A stretch of DNA of 64,000 bases from Chitinophagaceae bacterium (lineage in GTDB: Bacteria; Bacteroidota; Bacteroidia; Chitinophagales; Chitinophagaceae), in NCBI GenBank assembly GCA_049840875.1, contig JASGJE010000011.1, forward strand, positions 695,978 to 759,977. The letters are read 5' to 3'. Within the stretch, counting starts at the first letter, position 1. Each line of letters opens with the position of its first letter. The position numbers and the translations under genes were made by a program. Below are positions 10,090-55,358 of the stretch, one piece after another. Below the pieces are notes generated by a model that saw nothing but the letters and a program-made list of their open reading frames with translations, had not been told where the DNA came from and ran no database searches.

Positions 10090-11262
10090 TCACGACAAGC
10101 TTCTGCTTATTCCCAATTCCAATCCTCTCAATTCTGCCAGTCCTCTCAAACGGCCGATAGCAGAATAGCCAGGATACGTTTTCTTCCCAAGATCATCCAG
10201 CATCTGGTGACCATGGTCTGGTCGCATCGGTATTGAAACATTTCTCCGTTTCATCAACAGCACAATTTCTTTTACAATTTCGTACATATCTGTATCGCCG
10301 CCGAGGTGATCTGCTTCATAAAAATTTCCTTCCGCATCTCTTTTAGTATTGCGCAAATGCAAAAAATGAACGTGATCTCCAAAGCGTTTCAGCATTCTCG
10401 GCAAATCATTATCAGCCCTTGCACCGAAGGAACCAGTACAAAAACAAAAACCATTTGCCGATGATGGAACTGCATTCAGTAAGTCAGCGCCGTCTTGCTC
10501 CGTACTCATGATTCGTGGCAGACCTAATACCGAATAGGGAGGATCATCCGGATGAATAGCCATTTTTAGCCCGCATTCTTCTGCAACAGGAACAACTTGT
10601 TTTAAAAAATAAAACAAATGCTCCTTTAGCTTTTTTGCATCAATGTCTTTGTATCCATTTAGTGCAGATAAAACCTGTTCAGCCGTAAAAGATTCATCGC
10701 TTCCCGGCAAACCCAGCATCATGTTTTGAAAAAGATATTTTTTGTCTTCTTCTGATAGTGACTCAAATTTTATTTTTGCTTTTTGCAATTCTTCAGCGGA
10801 ATAAGATTTATCTGCGCCTGGACGTTTCAACAAAAACAAATCGAAAACGAGATAAGCAGCACGATTAAAATACAAAGCAGTACTACCATCCGTCATTGGG
10901 TAGTATATATCTGTGCGCAGCCAATCGAGGATCGGCATAAAATTATACGTCACTACTTCCAATCCACATGCAGCTACATTGCGCAAGCTTTCCTTATAGT
11001 TATCTATATACAATTTGAAATTTCCGGATTGCTTTTTTATGTCTTCATGTACGGGTAGGCTTTCAATAACGGTCCAGGTCATTCCTGCATCTTCAATCAT
11101 TTTTTTTCGTTTGCTGATCTCATCTTTTGTCCACACTTCACCAACGGGAACCTGGTGCAAAGCTGTAACAACACCTTCGCAACCTGCCTGGCGGAGATCC
11201 GATAAACGCACTGCATCATGAGGTCCGTACCATCGCATCGTCTGTCGCATTAATCTCGTCAT
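10090..11262 (-). CDS. uxuA: Mannonate dehydratase
   Basis: N-terminus [40 protein letters not shown] is the canonical UxuA signature (xylose-isomerase-like TIM barrel). Confidence 0.9.
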
Positions 11263-13548: not shown

Positions 13549-13636
13549 TTTGGCTAAAGCCAATAGACTTCTCAACCTATTGCCACGGCATTAATGCCTT
13601 GGCAATAGTAGCATTCTGAGCCAGGCTTTAGCCCAA
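13549..13636. repeat. REP/MITE-like palindromic element copy 1 (TIR TTTGGCTAAAGCC ... GGCTTTAGCCCAA; inner hairpin ATTGCCACGGCATTAATGCCTTGGCAAT)
   Basis: Same 13-14-bp terminal inverted repeats as the elements at 18919, 47200-47960 and 55273. Located downstream of aguA. Confidence 0.8.
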
Positions 13637-17401: not shown

Positions 17402-18853
17402 ATGATCAAAAAATTCTTTTTGTTTATTGGTGTCGCATTACTCATATTGATTGCAATTATTCTATTTAACACGTTCCGCAATTCTGCGTGGCCGGTTAGA
17501 CCCTCCGATGCCCAACTCCTACCTCTCCCGGATTCTGCAGCCATGCATATGAGTGAGGCCGTTAAGATAAAAACGATTTCAATCAGTGATACGTTACCAA
17601 TTGACACGACTGAATATTTAAAATTCATCGCTTTTATTGACAAATCTTATCCGCTTATTCATTCACATCTTACCCGAACTATTATTGACAGTTTGAACAT
17701 CGTATTTGAATGGAAAGGCAGTGATGCTACATTAAACCCTATAATATTAATGGGACATTATGATGTAGTTCCGGTAGAAGAAGCAGTGGCTGATAAATGG
17801 ACAGTACCGGCGTTCAGTGGGCTTATTACTGATAGTTGTGTGTGGGGTCGCGGATCAGTAGATGATAAATCAGGTGTCATCTCTGCGTTGGAAGCTACGG
17901 AAGCCATGTTGCGAAGACAATTTACACCGAAACGATCCATCTTTCTATGCTTTGGTCATGATGAAGAAATAAGTGGCAGTGGTGCGCGGGCCATTGTGAA
18001 ATACCTCGAAGGCAGAAATATAAAACCCGAGTTGGTATTAGACGAAGGCGGTGAAATAACTGAAACTAAGATTAAAGATGTAAAACGTCCTATTGCAGTA
18101 ATTGGTGTTGCGGAGAAAGGTTATGCTTCGTTTGAATTAACCGTAGAAAAGGAAGGCGGTCATTCTTCCAAACCTGATAAAGAAACTGCTATTGATATTT
18201 TAACAAAAGCTCTCTATACTCTCCGCAAAAACACGCCCGAATCAAGAATTACACCACCAGTTAAAGAATTCTTACACCGTATTGGTTCGTCGTCGGATAA
18301 TTTTACAACCCGCATGGCATCGTCAAACATGTGGCTGTTTGAAGGGATTACAAAAAATATTCTTTCTGCGAGTCCGGAAGGCAATGCCATGATTCATACA
18401 ACGATCGTTCCTACAATTCTGAAAAGCGGTATTAAAGACAATGTAATTCCATCCCGTGCGACTGCCGTTGTTAACAGCAGAATTCTCACAGGAGAAACAG
18501 CGAAGTCGGTTGAAGATTTTATTCGCAAAACGATCAATGACGACCGGGTAAAGATCCGGTCAATGGCAGGCATCGGAGCAGATCCTTCTGCCGGTACCAG
18601 TATTGGATCTACTGCATTTAAGCGTGTGGAAAGCGCCATTTACAAAACGACTCCTCAGGTTATACCAACACCTTATCTTATGATTGGCGCTACTGACTCA
18701 AAATATTACAGGCGTATTTCAGATCGTGTATTGAATTTTAATGCGATTACCGACAGCAAAGGTTTTCATGGTATTAATGAGCGATTGCCATTAAAAGATT
18801 TTCAACGTAGCATTAATTTTCTAATGACACTCATTGAAGAAAGCAACCAGTAG
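17402..18853 (+). CDS. M20-family metallopeptidase (carboxypeptidase S-like / peptidase dimerisation domain), N-terminal membrane anchor
   Basis: HYDVVPV...WGRGSVDDKSGV...GHDEE motifs of the M20 family; N-terminal TM helix. Confidence 0.75.
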   Translation: MIKKFFLFIGVALLILIAIILFNTFRNSAWPVRPSDAQLLPLPDSAAMHMSEAVKIKTISISDTLPIDTTEYLKFIAFIDKSYPLIHSHLTRTIIDSLNIVFEWKGSDATLNPIILMGHYDVVPVEEAVADKWTVPAFSGLITDSCVWGRGSVDDKSGVISALEATEAMLRRQFTPKRSIFLCFGHDEEISGSGARAIVKYLEGRNIKPELVLDEGGEITETKIKDVKRPIAVIGVAEKGYASFELTVEKEGGHSSKPDKETAIDILTKALYTLRKNTPESRITPPVKEFLHRIGSSSDNFTTRMASSNMWLFEGITKNILSASPEGNAMIHTTIVPTILKSGIKDNVIPSRATAVVNSRILTGETAKSVEDFIRKTINDDRVKIRSMAGIGADPSAGTSIGSTAFKRVESAIYKTTPQVIPTPYLMIGATDSKYYRRISDRVLNFNAITDSKGFHGINERLPLKDFQRSINFLMTLIEESNQ

Positions 18854-18918: not shown

Positions 18919-18990
18919 TTTGGCTAAAGCCAATGACTTTTCAACATATGCCGGAGCAATATCAAAACCCTGACTCAGGCTTTAGCCAAA
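18919..18990. repeat. REP/MITE-like palindromic element copy 2 (TTTGGCTAAAGCCAATG ... CAGGCTTTAGCCAAA)
   Basis: Same TIRs as above; downstream of the M20 peptidase gene. Confidence 0.8.
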
Positions 18991-19041: not shown

Positions 19042-19986
19042 TTATTCTACTATAATTTTTTCCGTATAACTTTTACCGGATTGTTGTGCTGTTAGCTTTA
19101 TGAAATAAGCTCCTGCAGCAACAGAAGGTAAGTTGAATGAAATTCTTTGTCGTTTATCAATGTTCATTAATTGCCTTTGCACAACCTGCCCGGAAAGATT
19201 AATTAGTTCAATAGCATAATTATCATTGGAAAGTTTATTGCCTTCAATTGTAATTATTTGACCTTTAGCTATCGGATTTGGATAAACAGAGAATTTATTT
19301 TGTGGCTTAATAAAATCACTAAGAGAATCTTTCAGATTTTGAAAAAAAGTCGTTTTGCTGATCATCGTTTCTCCAACGGTTACAACAGTTCTTGTCAGTC
19401 CAGTTGTATATCTACCACAATTGGTCGCAGTGACGGAAACATCAGCCAGAGTGTCAATCTTGTAGAATAAAGTCAACATTAAAGTTGTCCTTGGTTTATA
19501 TTTTTTTAAATCCACAATTTTTTCATTCGAGGAAAATCCAACGCGACTTGCTATCAATGTGATTAAGTTATCAGATGCCTCAGTATTGATAAAAAAATTA
19601 CCGCTACTATCTGTCAATACACCTCTTTTCGTTCCTTTTATAATTATCGAACAATAAGGAATTGGTAAACCATTTTCATCAACAACAGCTCCACGAATCA
19701 CTGCTTTCTCAAAATTCATTTGCTTGATCACATCGGCTGGATCTTCGTTCAGGATTAATTTGACCTTCGGCGCCATTGCTACTTTACCAACTCTTTCCTG
19801 ATACTGCGCCTTCGCTTCCATCGAAACGAGCATCGCCGGTATAGCAACCTGGAAAGAATATTTTATCCAGGGTAATGTTTTGCGCGGCGCCTGAATATTG
19901 CGATTGAGTTGATCATCCATAAACCGTCCGCATACCGAACCAGTTGACGACTTTTTAAAAAATGACATCAATTGCGCATCGCTCAT
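19042..19986 (-). CDS. T9SS C-terminal-sorting-domain protein with a carboxypeptidase-regulatory-like (CarboxypepD_reg) domain
   Basis: C-terminal YFIKLTAQQSGKSYTEKIIVE beta-strand motif typical of T9SS type-A CTDs. CarboxypepD_reg-like IRGAVVDENGLPIPYCSIIIKG...DSSGNF. Confidence 0.6.
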   Translation of the reverse strand: MSDAQLMSFFKKSSTGSVCGRFMDDQLNRNIQAPRKTLPWIKYSFQVAIPAMLVSMEAKAQYQERVGKVAMAPKVKLILNEDPADVIKQMNFEKAVIRGAVVDENGLPIPYCSIIIKGTKRGVLTDSSGNFFINTEASDNLITLIASRVGFSSNEKIVDLKKYKPRTTLMLTLFYKIDTLADVSVTATNCGRYTTGLTRTVVTVGETMISKTTFFQNLKDSLSDFIKPQNKFSVYPNPIAKGQIITIEGNKLSNDNYAIELINLSGQVVQRQLMNIDKRQRISFNLPSVAAGAYFIKLTAQQSGKSYTEKIIVE

Positions 19987-39262: not shown

Positions 39263-42200
39263 TTATGGTGTAAGCGAAATTCTTATCTGCACACCTGCTC
39301 TTGTATTCGTCACCGGTGCAGTTGTTGCTATCTTTGGCTCTATCTTGTTTTGTTCGTAGTAAAGTTTAATTGTTACACGTTTATTTACGGTATAATCAAC
39401 AGACGGCGCAATACGGGTTACTTTCTGTCCGCCTGTACCGAATGCAGTACTTTGATCAAGCTTACTATTTGATGTCGCATCATCTCTTAGCGAAAAGTCG
39501 AAACGTAATGTAACATCATTATCAAGTTTAAATCCTTTTTTACCAATACGAATATTACGAAGAATGGGCACATTCTTTCTTCTCCAGTTCATTGTTAAAT
39601 CATAAGTGGTGGACTGAGATTCTGCCAACTGGTAATCGACAAGACTTAAACTCAGGTTACGGCTTTTGCTATAGGCGAAATTCGTCGTTAATTGATTGGT
39701 GAATGTCATATCCAATCCAATCAATGGTTTGAATGCTTCGCTGATCGTAATATTCGGTATCAGGAAGAATGGAACATAGTTACCTGTAGTAGTATCAATA
39801 AATTGAGGATAGCCTGCATGGAATGGATCAAGGAACAGCAACGCTGTGTTAAAGCTATTCATACTTAAAGTACTTGAATAGCCATGCCGCAATGTAAAGT
39901 TTGTAAATATCTTATCTAATCCGGGCAATCTCGATAATCCGTTATAAGATAATGTCCAGTTTGGTTTTGGCAACAATCCGGAAAATGGATTTGAACGAAG
40001 GTTCGGATTAGAGTTTTTGATCAGCGCTATGCTTCCCGGATCTTTATTACTATACGCCGATAGGAATGCTGGTATCAATACATCCTGTGCATAGCGGCCG
40101 TAACCATAATAACTTCCGTCGGCATTTTCAGGTTGCGGACCGTATGGATTTTTTGCATTCAACCTGTTTGACAAAATATTTCTGTTGTTTTCAAATTGTT
40201 TGAACGTTTGTGATACCTGGTTCGGATCAAAACTTCTGAACATTGTTTGGAATGAAATGTAGGTTATTGTGAAACTTCCCGAAGCGTACGGATTCAATCG
40301 TGTAAGCCCTGAAGTGCCTGTTGTATCTTTATAAAGCTCAGAATAATTTTTATCAAATGTTTTCATCCAGTGCAGATCGATGCTCATATCTCTCACGGGA
40401 ATTATCTGAGCGGTAATGTCAAGATTCTGGTTATAACGTTGCTGAATAAGCGAATTAAACAAAGAGTCCCTCGTTAGCAATCCTCTCGACCCAAAGCGAT
40501 TAATCCAGGAAGTATCGGGCTGATAGCCATAAATAAACCCGAATCCAGGCTCCCTGCTTTTGAAGTTCATCCCGAGTACTTTTGTGCTATCCATATATCC
40601 CGGTAAAAGCGTTCCCATATCTTCATTGTATTGGACTGTTACTCTCTTCAATGAAGTCAGGAGTTTGAGGAAAGCTTTTGGTATCGCTCCTATTTGTACG
40701 GGCTCATTCGCGTTCCTTTGTCGTCTCGATGTATCTCTCCTCGCTGAAGTATCTTTTGGTTGTCTTGAAGCGTTAGGGTTAGTAGCATATACCGATTTCA
40801 GGAACTTCCACTTATTATACAATTGCTCGAAGTTAAATTCAGCATTAAAGTTTTTGGTCAACGCATTTTCCAATGTATTTCCCTGCGATTTTGCGCCAGG
40901 CAGTAATGATGCTGCAGACCAGTCATATTTCGTTCCATACGAAACTCGAATAGTCGTCCAATCCAGCAATGGGAACTTATTAGTCGGAAGATTGTAAGTA
41001 ACTATCGCATCCTGGTGATAGTGCGTATTACGTCCGCCTTTAAAAAAATTTCTGTATAGCGTGTCCTTCTTCGCTTTGGTATCTATTCGTCCTGTAGGTT
41101 CATCGATCCTTGCGTTGTTAATTGCATTAAAATCCAGGGTAAGCGACCTTGTGAGTTCCCATCGTAATACATAATAGCGGTCAAACGTAAAATATTTATC
41201 GTAGGTCTCGGGAATCTGGAAACCGTCACCACCGACATTTCTGGGCCGTATGGCACCGAACTGCCTGAATACATCTGCCTTGAAGGAAACTATTGATGGG
41301 GCGTAGTTGAAATTAAAATCTTTAACCAGTGAAAACCATGGCGAACGCGACTTAATTAATTTCTTAAACGGCTCAACAGGTTTTACCTGCGGTGCATAGT
41401 TATAGGCTAACGCTCCTCTCGTTCTTGTCAGCTCATTACTTTCTATTAGAGGGTTATGCTGCTCTTGTTTAGTATATGAATAATTGAGATCGACATTGGA
41501 AATATCCCACGGCATTGGCTTTTTGGTACTCGTCCGTATTTTTCTTACGCCTGTAAAGTTTACTGTTTTTATCGTCGTTTCATCAATTGCATTATTCTTT
41601 ATCGAATCTCTCGCTTGTTTTGACGGCGCGTCATTTAATTTTTGCTTCAACGTAATGTCAAGATCATAAGGATCATACTCCGGCGTACTTGTTGTTTTGC
41701 TGATACCCGCATAAACAGGAATCTGAATTGCCGCTTGCTTTGGTAACAATTTACCAAGGTCGAGATTTGTAGAAATATCAAACTGCTTCAGATCGTCACG
41801 GGCACGTTCATTTACTTTTTGTTCGAGTGTACCGAAGCCTACACTTCTTGTATTAGCAGAAACAGTTACACTACCAAGATCAGCCAATGTGATATCAACC
41901 CTTCCAGTTGCAGCCCAGCCGCCTTTCTCATTTAATTTCGATAATCGCAATTCATTAAACCAAACTTCTGTGCAAAGACTTGAAATCTTCATGTTTTGAA
42001 CACCCAGCATAATACCACGCACTTCACCCAAATTGGGATTACCGATAATGGCATATGACCGGCCATCGGCAGTAGTTTCACTATAATATTGCGCTGGTTG
42101 AATTGCCAGGTTATTTCGTCTTGACTTCAATCTTGTTAATTCAACAAGGTCGAAGTCAAGATTATTTTCGGCAGGCCAAACTGATAACGAATCGGCTGTG

Positions 42201-45200
42201 CTATTCCATGGTGTTATTTTCAATGGAATCTTTATTTCATAATAGTTACCGGAAAAGTCATTACCGATGCGGATAACAGCTTTCAGATCGCCGTATTGAA
42301 TAGATGCGCCACCACCTGTTGTGGAAGCATCTTCTGCGTGAATAAACATTGACAATCTTCCATATTGGCGAAGGTCGAGGTTCATTGTTTTAAATACACC
42401 TCTTGAAGTTTGTGGCAACAGATTACATGCCTGTATGCTTAGCGCCTGCTCATTCAGGAAAAGAGAAACGTTGTTATTACTAAGCTGTTGCTGTCTCTCA
42501 ACTCCCGGTGGAATACGATAAGGAATTGGTTGACGTTGATCGTTTTCTTCAATGTTTACAGCCAAAGTATTGAATGAAGTTGGATCATTTGCAGGCAATG
42601 GCGTATAGTTGCCGGTGGTATCGATATCATAAGAATACTTGCGCCATTGGTTACGCACCAGCTCCAGTTTTCCGAAACGACATACAACTGTATCTTCAAA
42701 ACCCGTCATAAACATCCTGATGAAGCGGATCGATTTGAAGTCCGGTATGTTGCCGACTTTACTTTGAAATTGATCAACGGGAATCCGGAATAAATACCAT
42801 TTTTCCGTACGTGTTCCGTTGTTTGCAAGTTTTACATTTACCTCTCTTGAGTCAGTTATAAAGTTGGAACCAGTTGCCATTCCTGGTTTTAAATCCACAC
42901 GGTACTGGAAGTATTCTTCCAGTTCATTCATCGTATTATCCTTGTTCAGTTCTTCCTGGTCAGGATACAATGTGAAGGCGTTAGTGTATTTATCATTTGC
43001 ACCGGCAATCGGCGAGTTACCACTTGGGTTATTAATATCCTTATAGCGGGCAAGTATACCTGCTTTTGCAGCATCGTATGACGGATCACGGTACGGTTTA
43101 AAGTTATCCTGCGACGGGTCGGCCTGTGCTTTCTGAACTATCGGTGACCCACCGCCGAAATTATTTGTGAGTGTAGTAATGTAATCCGCAAATTTTGTCT
43201 TTTCATCGGCATCCGCCAATCCATCAAAACCAACATCCTGGAAAGGTCTGTCATTAGGATCGTTACTGAACGCGTTAGTTACTTGTATAGGGTTAGAAGG
43301 AACGCGACCCCATACAGTACCGTTATCAACTGGTGCGCTGATCGTTGGCGTTGGCAAGCCATTTTCAAATTCGCGTTTTCCATCCCGCAATACATCTTCT
43401 GAAATATTTCCCAGATTAAAATACAATTGCCCACCAGTGCTTGCTGGTTTGTTAATGAAGGGATCTTGCAGCCAGAATTCGATATACTCGATGTTACTGG
43501 TTTCAAAGTCTGTTGTCTGATCAAGACTACGCATGATACCACCCCATGCACGTTTTGGGTTCAGCAGGTTGCCATTCGCATTTACCAAAGTTGGATTAGT
43601 CTGATAATTATAGGGGCCTCTTTCATTTGGATAATACGCCATGTCGAAAGTCGTCAATAACCCCTGTCCGAAATCAGTCGTACGTTCCGGAAAAATTTCT
43701 TCCTGGTAAACTTGACGTGTTTCGGGTTTGGATAGTTCATCTGCATCAGTAATCGGGTTATTTGCATTTTTATTTTCCTGCAACACGGGTTCTATATTAT
43801 ACCACGCAAGTTTCGCCCTGTTATATCCGTAGCTAAGATCATTTACCAAATCAGCTTCGGGAAATAATTCATTACCATTTTGATCCAATGATTTCTGCGG
43901 CGCTGATGCCAGTGCCCAACTGATCAATGGGAAGCGTAAGTCAATACTACTTCTTGTTCCTTCGAAGTCATCTATATAAATAGCGCCGCTGGTGCCTTTT
44001 CCAATTTGAGGAGCATGACCAGGTTTTAATACCGCACCTTCGCCGTATGCAGTGATGCTCGACATTGCCTTGGTCGAATAGAAAGGCAGTTTATCCAACC
44101 ATCTTGTCAATCGGGGAACATCATTGTGATAACTGAAGTCCAATCCATACATCGTATTGCGGATCGGATCATCTCCATAACTCTGTTTGTTGAAGAATGG
44201 CCGTTCACCAAGGCGCACGATTGTACCACCAACGCTAAGATTTTTATTGGCAAGATAATCCAATCGCAGAGCCATATAGTTTTTCTGCTGTAAACCATAG
44301 GATGCGTTGTTTTCAAATTGTACTGATACCGGAATGCCTGAATTAATAACTGCCTGGTTGATGATATGAAGCGTTCCTAAATCATAATTGATTTCGTAAT
44401 CGATATTCTCTTTTAAAACCTGTCCGTTTGCGGTAACAGTTACAGAACCTTTTGGAATATTATATCCCAGGTTGTAATCTGCATTGGTCGCTGTTTTTGA
44501 TTTACCGACTAATTCGAAGCGGTCAAGGTTGGCATATGTTTGTGCAATCGCTTTGATGGTATCATACAACGGGTAGTATAAATATTTATCCCGTAAATCC
44601 TGCGTTGGATACAGGTAATCAATATCATGACCAAAAGGCTCCAGTAAAGGAAATATGATACGGCTTTGCGAACCAATCGCTGTGAAGCCTTCGATGTAAT
44701 CGAATACTCCATCCGGCTGCGGGTCATTCTGATTGTTTAAGCGGTCTAAATTCAGTAAAGTCAATAATGGTTGCCCTTTGTATTGATCGCTGATATCTCC
44801 GAGCGGCATATATCTTTTCTGTCCAAGGCTTGGCTCATCATATACGACATCTAATTTGAAATCTTCTTTCTGCAACTGACCATAGCCTACAGAGTAAACG
44901 TTTTTCATCATTAGGTCCCATATCGGTAGATTGGTACGTTGTGATGTTGCTTTTAATAATTTCAGGAATAAAACTTTTTGAGAAGTTCCCGTAGAATCAG
45001 GTGGCACATCTTGCGAAAACTCACCCACTTTATACACACGACCATTGTACGTATATTCAAACGCGACACCCAACACTTCATCCGCCTGTAATGGTTGATT
45101 TAACGACAAAAATCCCACCTGGGGATTGAAGTAGTAATCGTTTGGACCCAACTTCCTTGCGTATGTCTTTTCAAAATCCTGTACGGGTTGCAATCCCAGG

Positions 45201-46465
45201 TTTTGCAGTGAGGTTTGAACAAGTGTTGAGTTTCGGTTATTGGGATTGGATAATATCGTTGAATAAAGACTATTGGAACTGTTTTGTGGGCGTGGATCAC
45301 CATTCCCTACCCATGGTCCGAAAGGTGTCGTTTCTCCAAGGTCCATTAATGCAACAACATCTCTCACGTTTGTATCGATACCCATCCTGTTTGTTACCCA
45401 CACTTCCATTCTCCTGATCTGAATAGCCGAATTCACAACCGGCAGGTTCTTCATCGCATTATTATAGTTATTGCGGAAATATTGCGATAATAAAAAGTGC
45501 CGGTTCTCTTCATATTCATCTGCACGGATCTTGAAAGATTGTGTTGCACCGCCACCCTGTATACCGAGTGTTTGTCGTTGTGAACGTTGGTTAGCAATCA
45601 ACGCAGTAACGAATAATTTACCGAATTGCAATTGCGTCTTTACACCAAATAGGGATTGCGCCCCGGGGATCAATGTTCCTTTTGAATTAAAACTCACATT
45701 ACCGGCCTGGAATTCTTTCAGTATTTCATCATCACGACCATGATAATCGAGTTTTAATTGATTTTCATAATCAAAAGTTGCAAGCGTATTATAGTTGATC
45801 GGGAGTTTTATTTTATCACCAATACTTGCATCTACCTGCAATTGCGAATTCATTTGATAATCGAGTCCGCCATTTTTTCTGGCACGCTCAGGTAACGTTG
45901 GATTTTTTACATTTTGTCCCTGGTAGCCGGCCATGATGTCGACATATCCTGTAGGCTTGATATCAATTTTTCCAACACCAGTAATACGATTCACCCAGTC
46001 TTTTACAAAATTGAATGGCGGTTTATAGGTACGGCGATTGAGGTCGCTCAATAAATCGGCCCGTTGACGGAAATAATCGTTTTCATCTTTTTTACCCTGC
46101 ATGTCCAAAAATTCCTGCATGGTAAACGTTGCCGGTACACGGTAATACTGCGTTCCTATTTTTTCAATGATGTAGTATTGTTTTGTTATCGGATCGTAAA
46201 CAATATTTTTCTTAACGAAAGAAGTATCTTTTAAGTCCAGGTTATTACGACTGGGGTAAGTGTATTTATCTCCGCGTCGATCGCTGATAGGATATCTAAG
46301 TGTATCTGGAGGGGCGGGAGTTGTATCGCTTTTTTGAAAAAATCCAACGTACTTATAATCCGTTTCACCCCAAAAGCGGGCGTTTGCCTCTTGGGGAAGA
46401 GCAAAGGCAAACATGAAGGCAATAATAGCCCCTGTACGGAATATGTACGCAGTAAATTTTGTCAA
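39263..46465 (-). CDS. sprA: T9SS outer-membrane translocon / gliding-motility protein SprA (Sov)
   Basis: 2400-aa single ORF, signal peptide, very large beta-barrel-like composition; the size and ruvA adjacency are characteristic of sprA. Confidence 0.85.
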   Translation of the reverse strand: MTKFTAYIFRTGAIIAFMFAFALPQEANARFWGETDYKYVGFFQKSDTTPAPPDTLRYPISDRRGDKYTYPSRNNLDLKDTSFVKKNIVYDPITKQYYIIEKIGTQYYRVPATFTMQEFLDMQGKKDENDYFRQRADLLSDLNRRTYKPPFNFVKDWVNRITGVGKIDIKPTGYVDIMAGYQGQNVKNPTLPERARKNGGLDYQMNSQLQVDASIGDKIKLPINYNTLATFDYENQLKLDYHGRDDEILKEFQAGNVSFNSKGTLIPGAQSLFGVKTQLQFGKLFVTALIANQRSQRQTLGIQGGGATQSFKIRADEYEENRHFLLSQYFRNNYNNAMKNLPVVNSAIQIRRMEVWVTNRMGIDTNVRDVVALMDLGETTPFGPWVGNGDPRPQNSSNSLYSTILSNPNNRNSTLVQTSLQNLGLQPVQDFEKTYARKLGPNDYYFNPQVGFLSLNQPLQADEVLGVAFEYTYNGRVYKVGEFSQDVPPDSTGTSQKVLFLKLLKATSQRTNLPIWDLMMKNVYSVGYGQLQKEDFKLDVVYDEPSLGQKRYMPLGDISDQYKGQPLLTLLNLDRLNNQNDPQPDGVFDYIEGFTAIGSQSRIIFPLLEPFGHDIDYLYPTQDLRDKYLYYPLYDTIKAIAQTYANLDRFELVGKSKTATNADYNLGYNIPKGSVTVTANGQVLKENIDYEINYDLGTLHIINQAVINSGIPVSVQFENNASYGLQQKNYMALRLDYLANKNLSVGGTIVRLGERPFFNKQSYGDDPIRNTMYGLDFSYHNDVPRLTRWLDKLPFYSTKAMSSITAYGEGAVLKPGHAPQIGKGTSGAIYIDDFEGTRSSIDLRFPLISWALASAPQKSLDQNGNELFPEADLVNDLSYGYNRAKLAWYNIEPVLQENKNANNPITDADELSKPETRQVYQEEIFPERTTDFGQGLLTTFDMAYYPNERGPYNYQTNPTLVNANGNLLNPKRAWGGIMRSLDQTTDFETSNIEYIEFWLQDPFINKPASTGGQLYFNLGNISEDVLRDGKREFENGLPTPTISAPVDNGTVWGRVPSNPIQVTNAFSNDPNDRPFQDVGFDGLADADEKTKFADYITTLTNNFGGGSPIVQKAQADPSQDNFKPYRDPSYDAAKAGILARYKDINNPSGNSPIAGANDKYTNAFTLYPDQEELNKDNTMNELEEYFQYRVDLKPGMATGSNFITDSREVNVKLANNGTRTEKWYLFRIPVDQFQSKVGNIPDFKSIRFIRMFMTGFEDTVVCRFGKLELVRNQWRKYSYDIDTTGNYTPLPANDPTSFNTLAVNIEENDQRQPIPYRIPPGVERQQQLSNNNVSLFLNEQALSIQACNLLPQTSRGVFKTMNLDLRQYGRLSMFIHAEDASTTGGGASIQYGDLKAVIRIGNDFSGNYYEIKIPLKITPWNSTADSLSVWPAENNLDFDLVELTRLKSRRNNLAIQPAQYYSETTADGRSYAIIGNPNLGEVRGIMLGVQNMKISSLCTEVWFNELRLSKLNEKGGWAATGRVDITLADLGSVTVSANTRSVGFGTLEQKVNERARDDLKQFDISTNLDLGKLLPKQAAIQIPVYAGISKTTSTPEYDPYDLDITLKQKLNDAPSKQARDSIKNNAIDETTIKTVNFTGVRKIRTSTKKPMPWDISNVDLNYSYTKQEQHNPLIESNELTRTRGALAYNYAPQVKPVEPFKKLIKSRSPWFSLVKDFNFNYAPSIVSFKADVFRQFGAIRPRNVGGDGFQIPETYDKYFTFDRYYVLRWELTRSLTLDFNAINNARIDEPTGRIDTKAKKDTLYRNFFKGGRNTHYHQDAIVTYNLPTNKFPLLDWTTIRVSYGTKYDWSAASLLPGAKSQGNTLENALTKNFNAEFNFEQLYNKWKFLKSVYATNPNASRQPKDTSARRDTSRRQRNANEPVQIGAIPKAFLKLLTSLKRVTVQYNEDMGTLLPGYMDSTKVLGMNFKSREPGFGFIYGYQPDTSWINRFGSRGLLTRDSLFNSLIQQRYNQNLDITAQIIPVRDMSIDLHWMKTFDKNYSELYKDTTGTSGLTRLNPYASGSFTITYISFQTMFRSFDPNQVSQTFKQFENNRNILSNRLNAKNPYGPQPENADGSYYGYGRYAQDVLIPAFLSAYSNKDPGSIALIKNSNPNLRSNPFSGLLPKPNWTLSYNGLSRLPGLDKIFTNFTLRHGYSSTLSMNSFNTALLFLDPFHAGYPQFIDTTTGNYVPFFLIPNITISEAFKPLIGLDMTFTNQLTTNFAYSKSRNLSLSLVDYQLAESQSTTYDLTMNWRRKNVPILRNIRIGKKGFKLDNDVTLRFDFSLRDDATSNSKLDQSTAFGTGGQKVTRIAPSVDYTVNKRVTIKLYYEQNKIEPKIATTAPVTNTRAGVQIRISLTP

Positions 46466-46504
46466 AACTTTCCCAGAGAATTAGTTCAATAAAGTCGGTT
46501 TGGA

Positions 46505-47086
46505 TTAAACAGAACGCAGGGCGATTTTGATCAGATCTTCAACTGAAGCGCCAGGCGTAGAAACCATAGCCTTTTGAATGGCCTGTTCCGCAGCCTGCCG
46601 GTTGATCCCTAATGCCAGCAATGCATTTAACGCATCTGCATGCAAAGTATTGTGTTTCACCGGGGAAATAGTTGATTCCGGAGTATGTTTGGCGAGCTTG
46701 TCGCGGAGCTCGATAACGAGGCGTTCAGCCGTCTTTTTTCCGATCCCTTTTACAGCTTCTAATGTGCGGGAGTCGCCGTTTAAAATAGCTTTGGCTACAT
46801 CGTCAGGTTTCATATACGAAAGCATCATTCTCGCCGTGGAAGCGCCGATGCCGGAAACGCTGATGAGGTGCAGAAACATTTCTTTTTCCGCCTTATCAAA
46901 AAAACCATAGAGAATATGTGCATCCTCGCGGATCAGCAAAGAGGTATGTAAAATGCCGTTATCCAGCGACTGGATCTTCGAGTATGTATTGAGACTGATC
47001 TGTACTTCATATCCTACTCCTTGTACATCGACATGAACAACTGCGGGTGTTTTATATACAAAGTTACCTTTGAGATATGCAATCAT
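46505..47086 (-). CDS. ruvA: Holliday junction branch-migration complex subunit RuvA
   Basis: MIAYLKGNFVYKTPAVVHVDVQGVGYEVQISLNTY N-terminal OB fold, HhH motifs (GIGKKTAERLVIEL) and the domain III tail. Confidence 0.9.
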   Translation of the reverse strand: MIAYLKGNFVYKTPAVVHVDVQGVGYEVQISLNTYSKIQSLDNGILHTSLLIREDAHILYGFFDKAEKEMFLHLISVSGIGASTARMMLSYMKPDDVAKAILNGDSRTLEAVKGIGKKTAERLVIELRDKLAKHTPESTISPVKHNTLHADALNALLALGINRQAAEQAIQKAMVSTPGASVEDLIKIALRSV

Positions 47087-47199
47087 GAACGCGAAAGTAC
47101 GGGGTTATAAGTTGTAAGTTTTAGGTTTTCAATTTTCCGAGCCTTCTCCGATAAAGGCAATATCATAAGCGCTATTGATAATTAAGATCGTTGAGATTA

Positions 47200-47960
47200 T
47201 TTGGCTAAAGCCGTTTCCCACAGAATACAGCTATCCACAGGTTAAAACCTGTGGCAATGATTTTATTGCTACAATCTTTGGACTGAGCATATCATTAAAT
47301 GGAATTTTCTGACCCTGGCCAAATTAGCATGATTAGCCTCTTACAATGCATTTGGCTAAAGCCATTTCCTACAGAATACAGCTATCCACAGGTTAAAACC
47401 TGTGGCAATAATTTTATTGCTACAATCTTTGGACTAAGCATATCATTAAATGGAATTTTCTGACCCTGGCCAAATTAGCATGATTAGCCTCTTACAATGC
47501 ATTTGGCTAAAGCCATTTCCTACAGAATACAGCTATCCACATGTTAAAACCTGTGGCAATAATTTTATTGCCGCAATCTTTAGATTGGGGACGCGATCGC
47601 AGACAGTGTCTTGGCTTTAGCCCAATAACTTTACCCAAGGCTAATTATCAGTTTGATTAAAGCCATCTCCAATAGCTCACATTATCTACACTAAATTCTA
47701 TGACAATGATTTTACTGTCCCAATGTTTAGATTGGAGATACAAACACAGGGAATGCTCCAGCTTCAGCCCAATAATTTTCTGCAGCGTTAATAATCCGTT
47801 TGGTTAAAGCCATCTCCTACAGCTCACATTATCTACAACAAAAAGCTGTGACAATGATTTTATTGCCCCAATCTTTAGATTGGGGGTTACTGGGTCGCAG
47901 AACCTTCCGGCTTTAGCCAAACAAAACCTCTTTAAAGATTGATTTTGGCTAAAGCCAATT
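47200..47960. repeat. Tandem array of REP/MITE-like units: three near-identical ~151-bp units (each starting TTTGGCTAAAGCC at 47200, 47351 and 47502), two degenerate units and a terminal partial unit; closing TIRs GGCTTTAGCC at 47613 and 47909
   Basis: Read directly. Each unit carries the hairpin CCACAGGTTAAAACCTGTGGCAAT. There are no unique spacers. Confidence 0.85.
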
Positions 47961-48148
47961 CTTAAAGTGCAATTTTTATCCCCATGCTGAAGCGGTCTCA
48001 ACATACTATAAGGGACAAGAGAGGGAAGTAAGTAGAAATAAATCGAAACAATCTCTATATAACTTATTAGTTTGGAATTAATTAAAGAAATTATAAGACT
48101 TCTTAAACTTATTCACTATTCGCCAGAATCTTGGCAAAGGGCAAATTA

Positions 48149-48721
48149 TTATTTACTTGTATCATTAGGGCTGTTATTGGGATTGTCTATTTTGGAAGGA
48201 GTAGCTTTATCTGTATTATTATTTTGGCGGCAAGCTTGTATACATTGAGGGATTCCGATTAGAAATATTCCTAAAGTCAATAGCACATAAACCGCAATTA
48301 ATATCATTGAATATTTAGAATAACGAGCCGAATCTTCTGCCGCTTTTGCCGCTTTTTCTGTTGCGTCAACCGTACGTTGGCCATAGGTTATTTGTTGTAC
48401 AACTGCATTATCTGTTATTTTCAAAAATTCATAGTATTCTTTGACACCGCCTTTCTCTTTAGCTTTTTTGGCTAAATCGGTTAATACATACCATTGTGTA
48501 GATGAGTTTGGGTGTTTTATAAAACCACGCTCTTCGGCTTCTTTTATTACAAAAAAATACCGGTTAGCTACCAGATTTGCTTTTTCTATTTCAGTTAATC
48601 CTTGTACACTAAGTTCGGGGTAATAATTCTGCATTATTACATAAGCATCTTTTGTAGCGGCATCCGGAATATTTTTAATTAGATAGTCGATTGCTGCTAA
48701 TATCTGTGCTTCTTCAGGCAT
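48149..48721 (-). CDS. Hypothetical 190-aa protein: N-terminal soluble domain plus a single C-terminal TM helix; start translationally coupled to an upstream 46-aa ORF
   Basis: ORF with a TM segment MILIAVYVLLTLGIFLIGI. ATGCCTGA start/stop overlap with the small upstream ORF (~48727-48857, MAKAKKKATPKPKQLPNDEPVKLNMSFEEAIKRAV...). Confidence 0.5.
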   Translation of the reverse strand: MPEEAQILAAIDYLIKNIPDAATKDAYVIMQNYYPELSVQGLTEIEKANLVANRYFFVIKEAEERGFIKHPNSSTQWYVLTDLAKKAKEKGGVKEYYEFLKITDNAVVQQITYGQRTVDATEKAAKAAEDSARYSKYSMILIAVYVLLTLGIFLIGIPQCIQACRQNNNTDKATPSKIDNPNNSPNDTSK

Positions 48722-48849
48722 TATATTTTTTCTTATTCTTAATGGGAGTATTTACCGCTCTTTTAATAGCTTCTTCAAAACTCATATTGAGTTTTACGGG
48801 TTCATCATTGGGGAGTTGTTTAGGCTTTGGGGTTGCCTTCTTTTTAGCT

Positions 48850-49125
48850 TTAGCCATTATTCTTTTTCTTATCTGCTTTCTTTTTTATAATTGGTAATTC
48901 TTCAGCAGGTTCTAAGTCTTTGGTGGATGGCAAATCTTCTAAACATAGCTTTTTGTAACAACTATATATTTCTTCGTAATCTATTCTATCTGATTTATCC
49001 AAATACATATACTTATGAGCAGGGCCATTTCTTATTAGAATTATATCCTTATCTCTTAAAGGTTGAATTGTGCAAGTGTATTTCTCCTTCAATAGATTTA
49101 TGAAAGAAGAACGCTTATATATCAT
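48850..49125 (-). CDS. hicA: HicA-like (YcfA/COG1724) mRNA-interferase toxin candidate with a Lys-rich C-terminal tail
   Basis: FINLLKEKY...IRNGPAHKYMYL resembles the HicA NGSNHLKL core. Tightly linked to a HicB-like gene. Confidence 0.45.
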   Translation of the reverse strand: MIYKRSSFINLLKEKYTCTIQPLRDKDIILIRNGPAHKYMYLDKSDRIDYEEIYSCYKKLCLEDLPSTKDLEPAEELPIIKKKADKKKNNG

Positions 49126-49128
49126 TCA

Positions 49129-49383
49129 TCAAAACTTTTCAACAAACTTTTTAGTCTTCACATTCGGGGGTAAATCATTATCCTCTTTTTCGTTGCCATT
49201 TTGTTCTTCAAATTCCATCACACTTTTATACATTTTCTTTAAATTCTTTTTTGCATCTTTTTCATTTTCTCCACTTGCCATAATATCTGTGCGGTGGTCA
49301 TAATAAGCTAAATATCTACCTGATTCACATTTCACTAAAATTCCGGGGTAAGAGTGTTTTTTTGTATGTTGGGATTTAGCCAT
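49129..49383 (-). CDS. hicB: HicB-like (UPF0150) antitoxin candidate
   Basis: YPGILVKCESGRYLAYYDHRTDIMASGENEKDAKKNLKKMYKSVMEF resembles the HicB N-terminal fold (YPvvfe.dedGgYva.fPDlPGc.tqGdTleEAl.na.eal). The ORF track start at 49413 would lie inside the IS terminal repeat; the internal ATG at 49383 is the likely start. Confidence 0.45.
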   Translation of the reverse strand: MAKSQHTKKHSYPGILVKCESGRYLAYYDHRTDIMASGENEKDAKKNLKKMYKSVMEFEEQNGNEKEDNDLPPNVKTKKFVEKF

Positions 49384-49387
49384 CTTG

Positions 49388-50608
49388 TTTGTTGAGTACC
49401 TAAAATTACTCATAAATATGATTTCCGCAACTCTCTATTTATCCGCATATTTCCACTGATAGCCTTTAGACGATTTCTTTAGACCTTTTAGGACTTTCCA
49501 GATAGTACCGGTATTTACGCCAACAGCTTGCGCAGCCTCTTTAAGTTTGGTATATGTGCCTACTATTTCACCGTCTTTTATTTGAAGTATTGTTCCAGCA
49601 GGGTAATTATGTACTGGTAATGGGTTGCTAATAGCAGCATCTTTTTTAGTTAGCGTAACGTAACGTAAACGGCCTTCTGCATTCTTTAGGGAGAGAGCAA
49701 ACCTTTCTACGTCCTTTATTTTCCTGCTATTATACCGGTACATAGTTTCGTCACAATAACGTGAAAGGTGTTTAGGTGTTACTTGGTGATATATGCCAAT
49801 TATAGACCTTTTAAGCAAGCTAAATGCGCCTTCTATGCTATTTGTATTGATAACTCCATCTCTCCCAAATTCGTCGTTTGCATGGTTTACAGTTTCATGG
49901 CCTGCGAAATCCTGATTAATCCCTATGTAGGCATTCGCTGTATCTGTCATCAATACTGCATCCTTATCTACATTCTCCCTGATTAGGGGTTGTAACACAT
50001 TAGAATTATTTTCTTTGCCGAGTGCTATTAATTTGAGTTTGCCGCCTCTCTCAATCATTCCCATAACCATAGTCTTATTTTGGGCTGTCCCATTGTTGTC
50101 CGTCCTTAGTTTAGCTCTCTTGTATTTGGGCATATTCTTTACTTTGCCGCCCACCCATGTTTCATCTATTTCTACAATGTTGTCTAATTTATCACTTGTC
50201 TTTTCTCTCATTAGCTCCCTTATTCTATGCAGCATGAACCATGCAGATTTTTGAGACACTTTAATATCCCTGCCTAACTGGTAAGATGAAATACCTTTTT
50301 TATGTGCTGTACATAGGTAGATAGCCATAAACCATTTAGTCAATGGTACATTAGAAGCCTCAAATACTGTCCCTGTAATGACACTAAACTTCCTATAGCA
50401 TGTTTTAGAGCCACATTTATATCTTTTACCATTCTCGATAACATAACATTTACCATAACCACAATAAGGGCAAACAGCGTTACCATTCTCCCACCTTGCT
50501 TTGGCTAAATAATCTCTACAAGTCTTTTCATCTGGCAGAGCCTTAACCATTTCGATAATGTTACTGAACATATTTGTTAATTTTATAGTGTTCTCAAAAC
50601 AACCTAAA
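49388..50608 (-). mobile_element. IS1595-family (ISXO2-like) insertion sequence, ~1.2 kb, with imperfect terminal inverted repeats (left ~49391-49412 GTTGAGTACCTAAAATTAC; right ~50582-50607 TTAATTTTATAGTGTTCTCAAAACAA)
   Basis: IR alignment read directly (TAATTTTA-G-GTACTCAAC-AAACAA vs TAATTTTATAGTGTTCTCAAAACAA). Contains a single transposase ORF. Confidence 0.6.
49435..50571 (-). CDS. IS1595-family DDE transposase with an N-terminal zinc ribbon (ISXO2-like)
   Basis: CPYCGYGKCYVIENGKRYKCGSKTCYRKFSVITGTVFEASNVPLTKWFMAIYL...SSYQLGRDIKVSQKSAWFMLHRIRE is the hallmark N-terminus of IS1595 transposases; the DDE region follows. Confidence 0.75.
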   Translation of the reverse strand: MFSNIIEMVKALPDEKTCRDYLAKARWENGNAVCPYCGYGKCYVIENGKRYKCGSKTCYRKFSVITGTVFEASNVPLTKWFMAIYLCTAHKKGISSYQLGRDIKVSQKSAWFMLHRIRELMREKTSDKLDNIVEIDETWVGGKVKNMPKYKRAKLRTDNNGTAQNKTMVMGMIERGGKLKLIALGKENNSNVLQPLIRENVDKDAVLMTDTANAYIGINQDFAGHETVNHANDEFGRDGVINTNSIEGAFSLLKRSIIGIYHQVTPKHLSRYCDETMYRYNSRKIKDVERFALSLKNAEGRLRYVTLTKKDAAISNPLPVHNYPAGTILQIKDGEIVGTYTKLKEAAQAVGVNTGTIWKVLKGLKKSSKGYQWKYADK

Positions 50609-50621
50609 TGATAAAAAATAT

Positions 50622-50921
50622 ATGGGTAAAGTAAAGTTTGTTCCTATTAGTTATTGGGATAAGAAAACCATGAAATTGACTGACAATCCAACTCCAGAAC
50701 AATGGAAGCAATTGGAAGACATTTGTAATGAACTTAACGTAAAATATTCTGGGAGCAGCGGATGTGCCATTCACCCCGAACGAGACCAAAAAATATTGAC
50801 AGGATATTTTAATGGCCACATCGATTTTCAAATATCTAAAACCAATGAATGTCATTGTGAGCAAATAATAAATGATTTAATAGCTATCCGTAATTATGAA
50901 ATGATTATGTCAAACCGTTAA
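50622..50921 (+). CDS. Hypothetical 99-aa Cys/His-containing protein (CAIHPERD...NECHCEQ)
   Basis: ORF only; no family recognised. Confidence 0.3.
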   Translation: MGKVKFVPISYWDKKTMKLTDNPTPEQWKQLEDICNELNVKYSGSSGCAIHPERDQKILTGYFNGHIDFQISKTNECHCEQIINDLIAIRNYEMIMSNR

Positions 50922-51203
50922 TACACTTCAAGTAATTGCAATTTCTCTTGCATGGGGTACAATTCGCTATTCTCTTTAAACCCATGCACACACACTAAAA
51001 TTTTAGTATTATTAGCATTTTCAAAATCCTGAATTAGCTTATTTAATAGGATGCTTAATTCTTTCACTTCATTGGATTGATCTATATATTCATTCGCCAA
51101 TAGAAGCTAAAAAATAGATGGTATTAACAATAACTAATTACAATACAACTAATTATGTTGTCCCTCTTTAGTTATTATGGCCGCTGAAGCATGGGGCAAT
51201 AAC

Positions 51204-51626
51204 CTAAAATCCAAATTTTGAAATAAACTCATCATATTCTTCTACGAAGGTTTTCTTTTTGTGATGACCTTCCTGATTATCAATGTACCTCTTTACGGCC
51301 TCAACACCAGATTCACTAACTGATACAGCGAAATAATCATCTTGCCACTCCAATCTTTTACTCTTGAACCCTGATCTGTTATTAAACCAAAAAGAAGATT
51401 CTCCTTTTATCAATTGTACAATTTTTTCTATTGTCTGTCCACTACCAAGCGACACAAGACAATGCAGGTGATCGTCGTATCCATTTACACAATCCAAAAA
51501 AATTCCTTTGCTTTTCGCATTTTGCTTTATATGATCAAATAACAAATACCGGACATCGTTTGTCAATACAGGTTCTCTGTTTTTAGTAGCCCATACCAAA
51601 TGAATCCATACCCTGATATATGGCAT
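51204..51626 (-). CDS. REP-associated tyrosine transposase (RAYT), IS200/IS605-like HuH TnpA
   Basis: HuH motif DHLHCLVSL, C-terminal catalytic YIDNQEGHH (IS200 Y-x-x-N-Q signature), N-terminus MPYIRVWIHLVWATKNREPVL. The ORF track extends to a GTG at 51713. No flanking IS605 TnpB is present. Confidence 0.7.
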   Translation of the reverse strand: MPYIRVWIHLVWATKNREPVLTNDVRYLLFDHIKQNAKSKGIFLDCVNGYDDHLHCLVSLGSGQTIEKIVQLIKGESSFWFNNRSGFKSKRLEWQDDYFAVSVSESGVEAVKRYIDNQEGHHKKKTFVEEYDEFISKFGF

Positions 51627-51776
51627 ATTCTTTTTTCCAATATTACCGAGGTTAACAATTCTAAAGACTCTTATCGACAGATTTCCCTTTATAAGTTGAT
51701 TTGAGCAAAGCACATTATAAATTGTTTGAACTCTTTATTTCTAATACCGATTTTTGCAACTCTAAAAAATCATTGA

Positions 51777-55272: not shown

Positions 55273-55358
55273 TTTGGCTAAAGCCAGTGTAGAAATCTGC
55301 TATTGCCCCGTCATTAATGACGGGGCAATAAGTTTAAAATTCCCAGGCTTTAGCCGAA
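55273..55358. repeat. REP/MITE-like palindromic element copy (TTTGGCTAAAGCCAGT ... inner hairpin ATTGCCCCGTCATTAATGACGGGGCAAT ... CAGGCTTTAGCCGAA)
   Basis: Same TIR family; downstream of the PLP enzyme gene. Confidence 0.8.

Follow-up and report, generated by a model that had tools for sequence, protein, structure and literature searches.

The 64,000-nucleotide stretch described here (the window; contig JASGJE010000011.1 of a Chitinophagaceae bacterium, positions 695,978 to 759,977) carries a family of short palindromic repeats and a gene for a Y1 HuH tyrosine transposase. Together they form a system like that of repetitive extragenic palindromic (REP) sequences and REP-associated tyrosine transposases (RAYTs), with an enzyme from a subclass that was published as REP-less, and the system is widespread in Bacteroidota. 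The repeats and the gene are as follows.

13549 to 13636, no strand assigned: dispersed palindromic element, 88 nt, intergenic, 68 nt past the end of an open reading frame (ORF) at 13481
18919 to 18990, no strand assigned: dispersed element, 72 nt, whose 13-bp terminal inverted repeats are perfect and whose inner hairpin has decayed
47199 to 47993, no strand assigned: six clustered element units, repeated with a period of 145-151 nt
51204 to 51626, minus strand: Y1 HuH tyrosine transposase, assigned by sequence to the IS200-like subclass 1.2, 140 aa, Pfam Y1_Tnp PF01797 (E 2.5e-27)
55273 to 55358, no strand assigned: dispersed element, 86 nt, intergenic, 60 nt past a metY-like ORF

A palindromic repeat family in the window

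With up to two mismatches allowed, the 13-mer TTTGGCTAAAGCC occurs 16 times in the window, against 2.18 +/- 1.34 expected and a maximum of 6 in dinucleotide-preserving shuffles. Each of the three dispersed elements (72-88 nt) is bounded by TTTGGCTAAAGCC and, at the opposite end, by its reverse complement. All three are intergenic and lie 60-70 nt beyond a gene end, the element at 18919 between the convergent ORFs 17402-18853 (+) and 19042-19986 (-). The element at 13549 reads, in order, TTTGGCTAAAGCC, a 16-nt arm, the inner hairpin TATTGCCACGGCATTAATGCCTTGGCAATA, a second 16-nt arm, and GGCTTTAGCCCAA. The constant terminal inverted repeats of the unit measure 13-16 bp, (CAC)TTTGGCTAAAGCC, and each is itself a small palindrome for which a hairpin, TTGGC-TAAA-GCCAA, is possible. 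Two of the three dispersed elements enclose a GC-rich inner hairpin, TATTGCC(N7)TTAA(N7)GGCAATA. This central stem varies by compensatory changes, two of which separate the copies at 13549 and 55273, while the tags ATTGCC (5') and GGCAAT (3') are kept. The 5' tetranucleotide GTAG or GTGG is absent from the repeats; they carry ATTGC(C) as the tag at the foot of the hairpin (GGCAAT on the opposite strand).

As single-stranded DNA, the dispersed elements fold into an outer stem of 13-14 bp, two unpaired or internal-loop arms of ~15-17 nt, and the inner hairpin. The hairpins that a preliminary description of this DNA had proposed are borne out by z-scores, relative to shuffles, of -4.8 for the element at 13549 (-22.1 kcal/mol), -4.1 for that at 18919, and -8.9 for that at 55273 (-26.2 kcal/mol). 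Of all copies, the last is the best formed, its 13-bp inner stem (TATTGCCCCGTCA/TGACGGGGCAATA) being perfect. A covariance model, R1, was built from 83 elements (81 metagenomic and the two best window copies) and run on the window with filters off; it scored the three copies at 72.4 bits (E 1e-15), 43.2 bits, and 74.4 bits, respectively.

Left repeats of the cluster lie at 47200, 47351, 47502, 47652, 47799, and 47944. Units 1 and 2 share 97% identity, and neither has a right repeat. Units 3 to 5 have both ends and are of a long form of ~125 nt, laid out as left repeat, hairpin-GxCAAT, ATTGCC-hairpin, and right repeat. Unit 6 (47944-47993) consists of a left repeat and the left half of a hairpin, cut by a transposon that is described below. 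The R1 census of the 64 kb returned these dispersed and clustered copies and no others. Together with the motif count, it confirms the eight or more palindromic elements reported earlier at 13549, 18919, 47200-47960, and 55273, which resolve into three dispersed elements and the six-unit cluster. With inverted repeats around a spacer, a fold into one long hairpin, and a population of copies, the elements have the attributes of REPINs (REP doublets forming hairpins).

The family beyond the window

A scan of metagenome contigs for TTTGGCTAAAGCC-N40-70-GGCTTTAGCC found at least 120 loci with the pattern. Among the metagenome matches listed, element length is sharply peaked at 85-88 nt. The terminal repeat is frequently extended to CAC...GTG, and the inner hairpin falls into two main classes, ATTGCCCCGGCC-TTAA-GGCCGGGGCAAT and TTAACCCAAGGC-TTAA-GCCTTGGGTTAA. 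In the alignment of 83 elements, a set pre-filtered for a central stem of at least 7 bp, 12 of the 13 inner-hairpin pairs have changed on both sides, with 88.5% of cells paired, and covariation scores 0.324, compared with 0.109 in shuffles (0/500 reach it) and at most 0.08 in slid controls. Direct repeats of 3-8 nt were sought at every offset around 166 element ends, and none was consistent, which is what Y1 transposition would lead one to expect. The absence of such target-site duplications (TSDs) argues against mobilization by a DDE transposase.

The pattern was matched once in 2.9 million viral contigs, so the elements are not phage-borne. Element-bearing metagenome loci, among those listed, contain ~1.6 further elements per 100 kb beyond the index copy, and the window contains ~4.7 per 100 kb; by a very rough extrapolation, a genome would hold tens to a few hundred copies. 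Literature searches with the motif strings returned only unrelated primer matches, none in this context.

Two observations concern the repeats in assemblies. Four to five elements lie on a 6080-bp metagenome contig (L114) whose two ends, flanks included, are reverse-complementary; the contig is either a genuine large inverted duplication with elements at its boundaries or a palindromic artifact that the elements caused in assembly. In addition, a contig of a Chitinophagaceae metagenome-assembled genome (MAG) that is syntenic with the window (L004, 10400-10626) stops within the element located just after its Y1 gene, so the repeats probably break short-read and metagenome assemblies.

The enzyme and its class

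The Y1 protein carries the HuH motif DHLH (H53, H55), EWQ, and YIDNQEGHH with the catalytic tyrosine Y114. By tblastn of the window, its gene is single-copy in the 64 kb. Among 25 homologues (49-80% identity; alignment A2), H53, H55, W94-Q95, Y114, Q118, and H122 are invariant, and on that basis the enzyme looks functional. It has 140 aa versus the 144 aa typical of homologues, and DHLH versus the DHVH of most orthologues.

The gene had been described as a RAYT. That it is an intact Y1 HuH transposase (PF01797) holds; that it is a canonical RAYT does not. The protein passes the NCBIfam model for IS200/IS605 transposases (NF033573; 67.5 bits, cutoff 55) and fails that for REP_Tyr_transpos (NF047646; 31.5 bits, cutoff 80). 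Class 2 (TnpA-REP/RAYT) is defined by the motif Y---NP (Quentin et al. 2018, PMC6006769), which is not present here, as YIDNQEGHH has no NP. The nearest solved structures in the PDB are the TnpA proteins of IS608 and ISDra2, and the same database gave no match to E. coli TnpA-REP at E <=0.01. Look-ups of identical proteins gave no match for the Y1 protein with either start choice, for protein P0001, or for the IS1595-family transposase described below. NCBI names the protein an IS200/IS605 family transposase. IMG names its relatives "REP element-mobilizing transposase RayT," which we take to be a generic, COG-derived label.

The features of the protein are those of TnpA-Y1 subclass 1.2. This subclass was described by the motifs Y---Q--HH, WQ, and D-H-[IV]-H, a length of ~148 aa, a low number of copies, and a distribution over Bacteroidetes and Cyanobacteria, and as being without insertion sequence (IS) properties and outside Bertels' groups 1-5 (Quentin et al. 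2018, PMC6006769). YIDNQEGHH fits Y---Q--HH, and the protein shares WQ, D-H-x-H, a length of ~140-148 aa, a conserved C-terminal tail, a probably low copy number, and a bacteroidetal host. Judged by sequence, the enzyme is a member of the IS200-like subclass 1.2, outside class 2 and RAYT groups 1-5, and not a canonical RAYT. Subclass 1.2 was listed without REPs, and the REP table of that study has no rows for it (PMC6006769), whereas a conserved hairpin motif, which also has dispersed copies, flanks the genes considered here. The REP search in question was built on GT[AG]G-footed hairpins (PMC6006769) and would therefore have missed the present motif. Beyond Quentin 2018 and Di Nocera 2013, we found no published descriptions of REP/RAYT systems in Bacteroidetes.

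Association of the repeat with the gene in other genomes

We searched 80 loci (1.13 Mb) that encode relatives of the Y1 protein (49-74% identity) in GTDB species genomes, including Chitinophagaceae, Terrimonas, Ferruginibacter, Lacibacter, Flavobacterium, Salinimicrobium, Chryseolinea, Ignavibacteria, and others. In 19 of the 80, the exact 12-mer TTGGCTAAAGCC is present, mostly directly past the gene. The exact 10-mer GGCTAAAGCC lies within 90 nt downstream of the gene in 41/77 loci (wrong orientation in 1) and the exact 10-mer GGCTTTAGCC within 90 nt upstream in 21/79 (wrong orientation in 5), compared with 1/950 control windows. When up to one mismatch is allowed, the minus form stands 10-45 nt before the ATG and the plus form directly past the gene end. 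Model R1 produced 37 distinct matches in the 80 loci, 35 of them within ~700 nt of the gene. Conversely, the gene lies directly beside the element in 6 of 120 listed metagenome loci (740 kb in total) that were chosen only for the element. The terminal repeat thus accompanies and adjoins orthologues of the gene, which the preliminary description had put forward as a check on the pairing.

Many orthologues have, past the stop codon, a small hairpin N4-6-GGC-TAAA-GCC-N4-6', frequently with GCAAT or GCAAG behind it; on the opposite side there is often (A/C)TTGC with a GC hairpin, or GGCTTTAGCC. Homologues mostly end in ...FG*, and the codons TTT GGC TAA are the repeat motif itself, so in most orthologues the stop codon lies inside the first flanking repeat. 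Examples are found in L002 (10421-10439), L003 (598-616), and the C-termini of alignment A2. The window gene is 4 aa shorter and has lost the proximal motif and its spacer. Upstream of it, the possible motif remnants GCTTTGCTCAAA and GTCTTTAGAATTG (gene orientation) are both too weak to call. The inverted flanking motifs found in orthologues are seen in the window on the 3' side only, after the transposon is removed.

Could the elements be functional sequences of the host, such as bidirectional terminators, mRNA-stabilizing hairpins, structured small RNAs, or protein-binding sites, with the Y1 gene merely nearby? All three dispersed copies are intergenic and 60-70 nt past a gene end, the stems covary strongly, the termini are invariant across genera, and REPs are known to acquire host roles, terminator-like ones among them. 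However, this explanation accounts neither for the fixed-orientation, two-sided flanking of the Y1 gene across dozens of genera nor for the stop codon built into the motif, and the symmetry of the elements means that there is no preferred transcribed strand. Furthermore, Rfam gave no match in the whole window at the gathering threshold, and for the element regions none even at E <=1 (three chance matches fell elsewhere), so the elements belong to no known RNA family. We judge a primary host function to be very unlikely, although a host role could exist as a secondary use.

Other features of these loci concern the form of the repeat. The hairpin-plus-GCAAT module is tandemly reiterated beside many orthologues, for example as four copies of GGCGTGGCAATACCTGAAG in L002 (10450-10560) and four of AATTGACTCGCGCTTTAGCGT in L003 (1-100), with further sites in L009 (3700-4000) and L021 (10480-10700); local arrays are therefore common and not peculiar to the window. 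In a dispersed Flavobacterium cluster (L024, 15335-15473), the ATTGCC tag is fused to the terminal-repeat hairpin (ATTGCC-TTTGGC-TTTA-GCCAAAGG) and the other end reads CCGTTGAC-TAAA-GTCAACGG-CAAT, a sign that one tagged-hairpin unit may exist in two versions, the terminal repeat and the inner hairpin. In the same locus (9916-9988 and 10616-10688; also in L018 and L030), a 73-nt direct repeat with 74% identity and 700-bp spacing brackets a cassette of Y1 gene plus element. The repeat duplicates the 3' end of the upstream gene (...TTTTATGGTAAATA) and looks like a footprint of the cassette's arrival.

A transposon in the last hairpin of the cluster

Four further features mark the stretch from the end of the cluster to the Y1 gene.

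47986 to 47993, no strand assigned: left copy of the target-site duplication GCTGAAGC, which coincides with the loop of the unit-6 hairpin and the stem bases next to it
47994 to 51182, minus strand: IS1595-family transposon, 3189 bp, GC 0.34, which interrupts the repeat system and is not part of it
49435 to 50571, minus strand: IS1595-family transposase, 378 aa, with a Zn-ribbon, DDE_Tnp_IS1595, and a NUMOD-like C-terminal domain
51183 to 51203, no strand assigned: right copy of GCTGAAGC (51183-51190), followed by ATGGGG, which is the right half of the unit-6 hairpin, and by the tag CAATAAC

From ~48000 to 51750, GC is 0.30-0.35, versus 0.40-0.45 around it. Repeats and enzyme had been thought to share one island, but the low-GC stretch between them is this unrelated transposon. 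Its terminal inverted repeats are imperfect: it starts with GGTCTCAACATACTATAAGGGACAAG and closes with the reverse complement of GGCCATAATAACTAAAGAGGGACAAC. The transposase domains score at Pfam E 1.3e-36 and 2.9e-08 and at 189 bits in NCBIfam. Members of the IS1595 family generally have 8-bp TSDs at their flanks (PMC8101967). The insert shares with IS1595-family transposons that carry passenger genes the Zn-ribbon, DDE_Tnp_IS1595, the 8-bp TSD, and imperfect terminal repeats starting with GG; it differs from them in the added NUMOD-like domain of its transposase and in its five ORFs without a family match.

The sequences CCCCATGCTGAAGCGG (47980-47995) and GCCGCTGAAGCATGGGGCAATAAC (51180-51203) are present as described before, and their 16/18 reverse complementarity had been read as a pair of REPs flanking a RAYT. 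They are instead the two halves of one hairpin. Because the transposon split that hairpin, its two arms, each with a copy of the 8-bp target duplication, now appear as inverted 16-mers. Both a chance inverted repeat and a RAYT-flanking pair were rejected in favor of this explanation. Once the insert and one octamer are removed, the sequence becomes TAT-CCCCATGC-TGAA-GCATGGGG-CAATAA, a perfect 8-bp hairpin with its GGCAAT tag, and the flank runs into the Y1 stop codon at 51204-51206; the array, therefore, once abutted the Y1 gene. In gene orientation the rebuilt flank is ATTGCC-CCATGC-TTCA-GCATGGGG-ATAAAAATTGCAC...GGCTTTAGCCAAA. Upstream of an orthologue in L001, we found ATTGCCCTGCTCTTCAAAGCAGGGATAAAAATAG...GGCTTTAGCCCAA, a close match to the rebuilt window module.

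The nearness of a DDE transposase gene, 630 nt from the Y1 gene, raises the possibility that the elements are miniature inverted-repeat transposable elements (MITEs) moved by a DDE enzyme such as this one; terminal inverted repeats and small size are indeed what classic MITEs have. Yet the transposon ends (GGTCTCAACATAC..., GGCCATAATAAC...) are unrelated to TTTGGCTAAAGCC, and IS1595 makes 8-bp duplications while the elements have none. Similarity to IS1595 is found in only 2 of the 80 gene loci, and the transposon interrupts an element, so it arrived later. The unrelated ends and absent target duplications effectively refute this explanation, which we hold to be extremely improbable.

The transposon sits exactly in the loop of a repeat hairpin (window 47994-51182), and REP hairpins are known targets of insertion sequences in Pseudomonas. 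The extra C-terminal domain of its transposase resembles NUMOD and homing-endonuclease domains (Pfam E 2.7e-4; PADLOC HEase E 2e-6). Its five small ORFs (190, 91, 94, 99, and 60 aa) yielded nothing credible in PADLOC or a permissive Pfam scan. On the other side, the array adjoins ruvA (46505-47086, -) and a 2400-aa ORF (39263-46465, -), which looks like SprA of the type IX secretion system. The surroundings of the array (39263-47086) are ordinary core genes and not a mobile-element island.

Inheritance of the gene

The window is syntenic with the Chitinophagaceae MAG locus L004 (metY 84%, fabH 87%, nitroreductase 77%, Y1 74%), where an element directly follows the Y1 gene. The element at 55273 was considered as a clean presence/absence case and rejected: L004 has no element after metY, and its next gene is also different. 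Three Flavobacterium species (L032, L044, and L054) are colinear over 20 kb with the Y1 gene at the same site. In genomes with two Y1 loci, the paralogues are diverged and none are identical. Conserved sites and diverged paralogues form the pattern of a resident gene, not of a hopping insertion sequence, and together with the single copy in the window, the synteny and diverged paralogues are signs of domestication.

This evidence bears on whether the Y1 gene is itself an autonomous IS200-type insertion sequence, the motif and hairpins being its ends and the 86-nt elements internally deleted derivatives like palindrome-associated transposable elements (PATEs) or MITEs. The protein's NCBIfam scores, its nearest structures, and its NCBI name would all agree with this, and hairpin-bearing flanks are typical of IS200/IS605. 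Nevertheless, there is one copy in the window, same-genome paralogues are diverged, and the genomic position is kept across species. The flanking motifs are inverted, on opposite strands, whereas the ends of IS200/IS605 are on the same strand, and the Y1 gene occupies a linker position between elements rather than a place inside one. No tnpB remnant, which would have spoken against a REP/RAYT system in the preliminary description, was found at the window locus; with the nitroreductase gene 150 nt away and the array formerly abutting, there is no room for one. Finally, subclass 1.2 was described without IS properties (PMC6006769). We consider an autonomous insertion sequence unlikely.

Discussion

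Our results suggest that the repeats are a nonautonomous palindromic family of the REP/REPIN kind and that the Y1 gene encodes their cognate single-strand-DNA enzyme, an interpretation that we regard as probable. The preliminary description had seen an intact REP/RAYT system of a family that could not be placed. The cognate pairing stands, along with the flanking of orthologues by the motif. The system is not fully intact, having lost its gene-proximal motifs, and its enzyme can be placed in subclass 1.2.

Several known systems invite comparison. The REP/REPIN-RAYT systems of Proteobacteria (REPtrons; TnpA-REP, class 2, Bertels groups 2 and 3) have a Y1 HuH gene that is low-copy and vertically inherited, as the present one probably is, and they likewise combine inverted palindromic flanks with a repeat that also occurs between genes as singlets, clusters, and inverted doublets that fold into long hairpins. 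The present protein differs in having no Y---NP motif, no passing REP_Tyr_transpos score, and no PDB match to TnpA-REP, and the present repeats differ in their ATTGCC/GGCAAT tag and in their constant terminal repeat (13-16 bp), which stands ~17 nt away from a variable hairpin. With the TnpA of IS200/IS605 (IS608, ISDra2), the closest relative in sequence and structure, the system shares HuH/Y1 chemistry, hairpin flanks, and the lack of TSDs; here, however, there is a gene at conserved positions with one copy in the window, no tnpB, a separate dispersed repeat population, and hairpins inverted on opposite strands where IS200/IS605 has its ends on one strand. The Bacteroidetes RAYT subclass 2.6 (Bertels group 5) also consists of Y1 genes flanked by "atypical secondary structures" that are copied elsewhere (PMC6006769), but it has its own protein class (NH[LIV]H, YIH[QN]NP, ~179 aa) and its own repeats, such as GCTAGCGCGAGCGTCCCGCTCGTG. 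The hairpin apex of the present repeats resembles that of REPs of classes 2.7 and 2.8, which share GGC-TTTA-GCC and have a GTAG foot, as in GTAGGACAGGCTTTAGCCTGTC of Ignavibacterium album and GTAGTGAGGGCTTTAGCCCT of cyanobacteria (Table S1, PMC6006769). This apex may be a widely recognized feature among Y1 enzymes.

How such a system might work can be modeled on the TnpA of IS200/IS605 and on TnpA-REP, which act on single-stranded DNA, recognize hairpins, and form a 5'-phosphotyrosine link (PMC8266576). By analogy, the Y1 HuH enzyme would bind element hairpins in single-stranded DNA, for example at replication forks, and may use the bases at the hairpin foot (ATTGC/GCAAT) to choose its cleavage site. 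It would then cut through a 5'-phosphotyrosine link and rejoin the strands, thereby dispersing or duplicating elements without target-site duplications. In the lineages examined, the gene itself is probably inherited vertically; it normally stands between two inverted copies of the motif, and its stop codon is often inside one of them. In the window, the six-unit cluster at first abutted the stop codon, and the 3.2-kb IS1595-family transposon later separated gene and cluster. The terminal motif stands ~17-20 nt from the variable hairpin, a spacing presumably like that of the left cleavage site of IS608, which makes it a candidate cleavage or guide region; IS608-style guide and cleavage pairing, sought from the letters of the repeats alone, gave no convincing assignment.

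Some of our observations count against this interpretation. Most orthologous 20-kb loci have few copies away from the gene, so dispersal may be low in many genomes. In the window, the arms differ strongly among the three dispersed copies and hence give no sign of recent copying. The gene-proximal motif is absent on both sides of the window's own Y1 gene, and the link between that gene and the cluster rests on the removal of the transposon and on orthologues. True IS200/IS605 transposases are the closest relatives of the enzyme in sequence. The stem-length filter applied to the covariation set must also be weighed here, as must the fact that we infer binding, cleavage, and movement of the elements by the enzyme from analogous systems.

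An even broader view is that subclass 1.2 as a whole is an independent, Bacteroidota-wide domestication of an IS200-like transposase with its own REPIN-like population, a view on which our confidence is evenly divided. The GGCTAAAGCC hairpin and the ATTGCC/GGCAAT tag would then stand in for GTAG, the constant terminal motif could be the cleavage or guide site, and the partnership would have a separate origin, convergent with that of proteobacterial class 2.

No mobile element illustrates persistence by vertical inheritance better than the REP/REPIN-RAYT systems, which, to our knowledge, are known almost only from Proteobacteria with class-2 enzymes. Our findings add an enzyme of the IS200 branch, described in 2018 without IS properties or REPs, that is flanked by a conserved palindromic motif, which is itself dispersed through the genomes of soil and freshwater Bacteroidota. 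In practical terms, covariance model R1 could be used to annotate these repeats in assemblies. If the enzyme does mobilize the elements, their invariant 13-bp ends and freely covarying hairpin would serve as a substrate with which to study the choice of hairpins and cleavage sites by Y1 enzymes. More generally, mobilization would give a function to the orphan subclass 1.2 and would mean that the partnership between REPs and RAYTs arose more than once.

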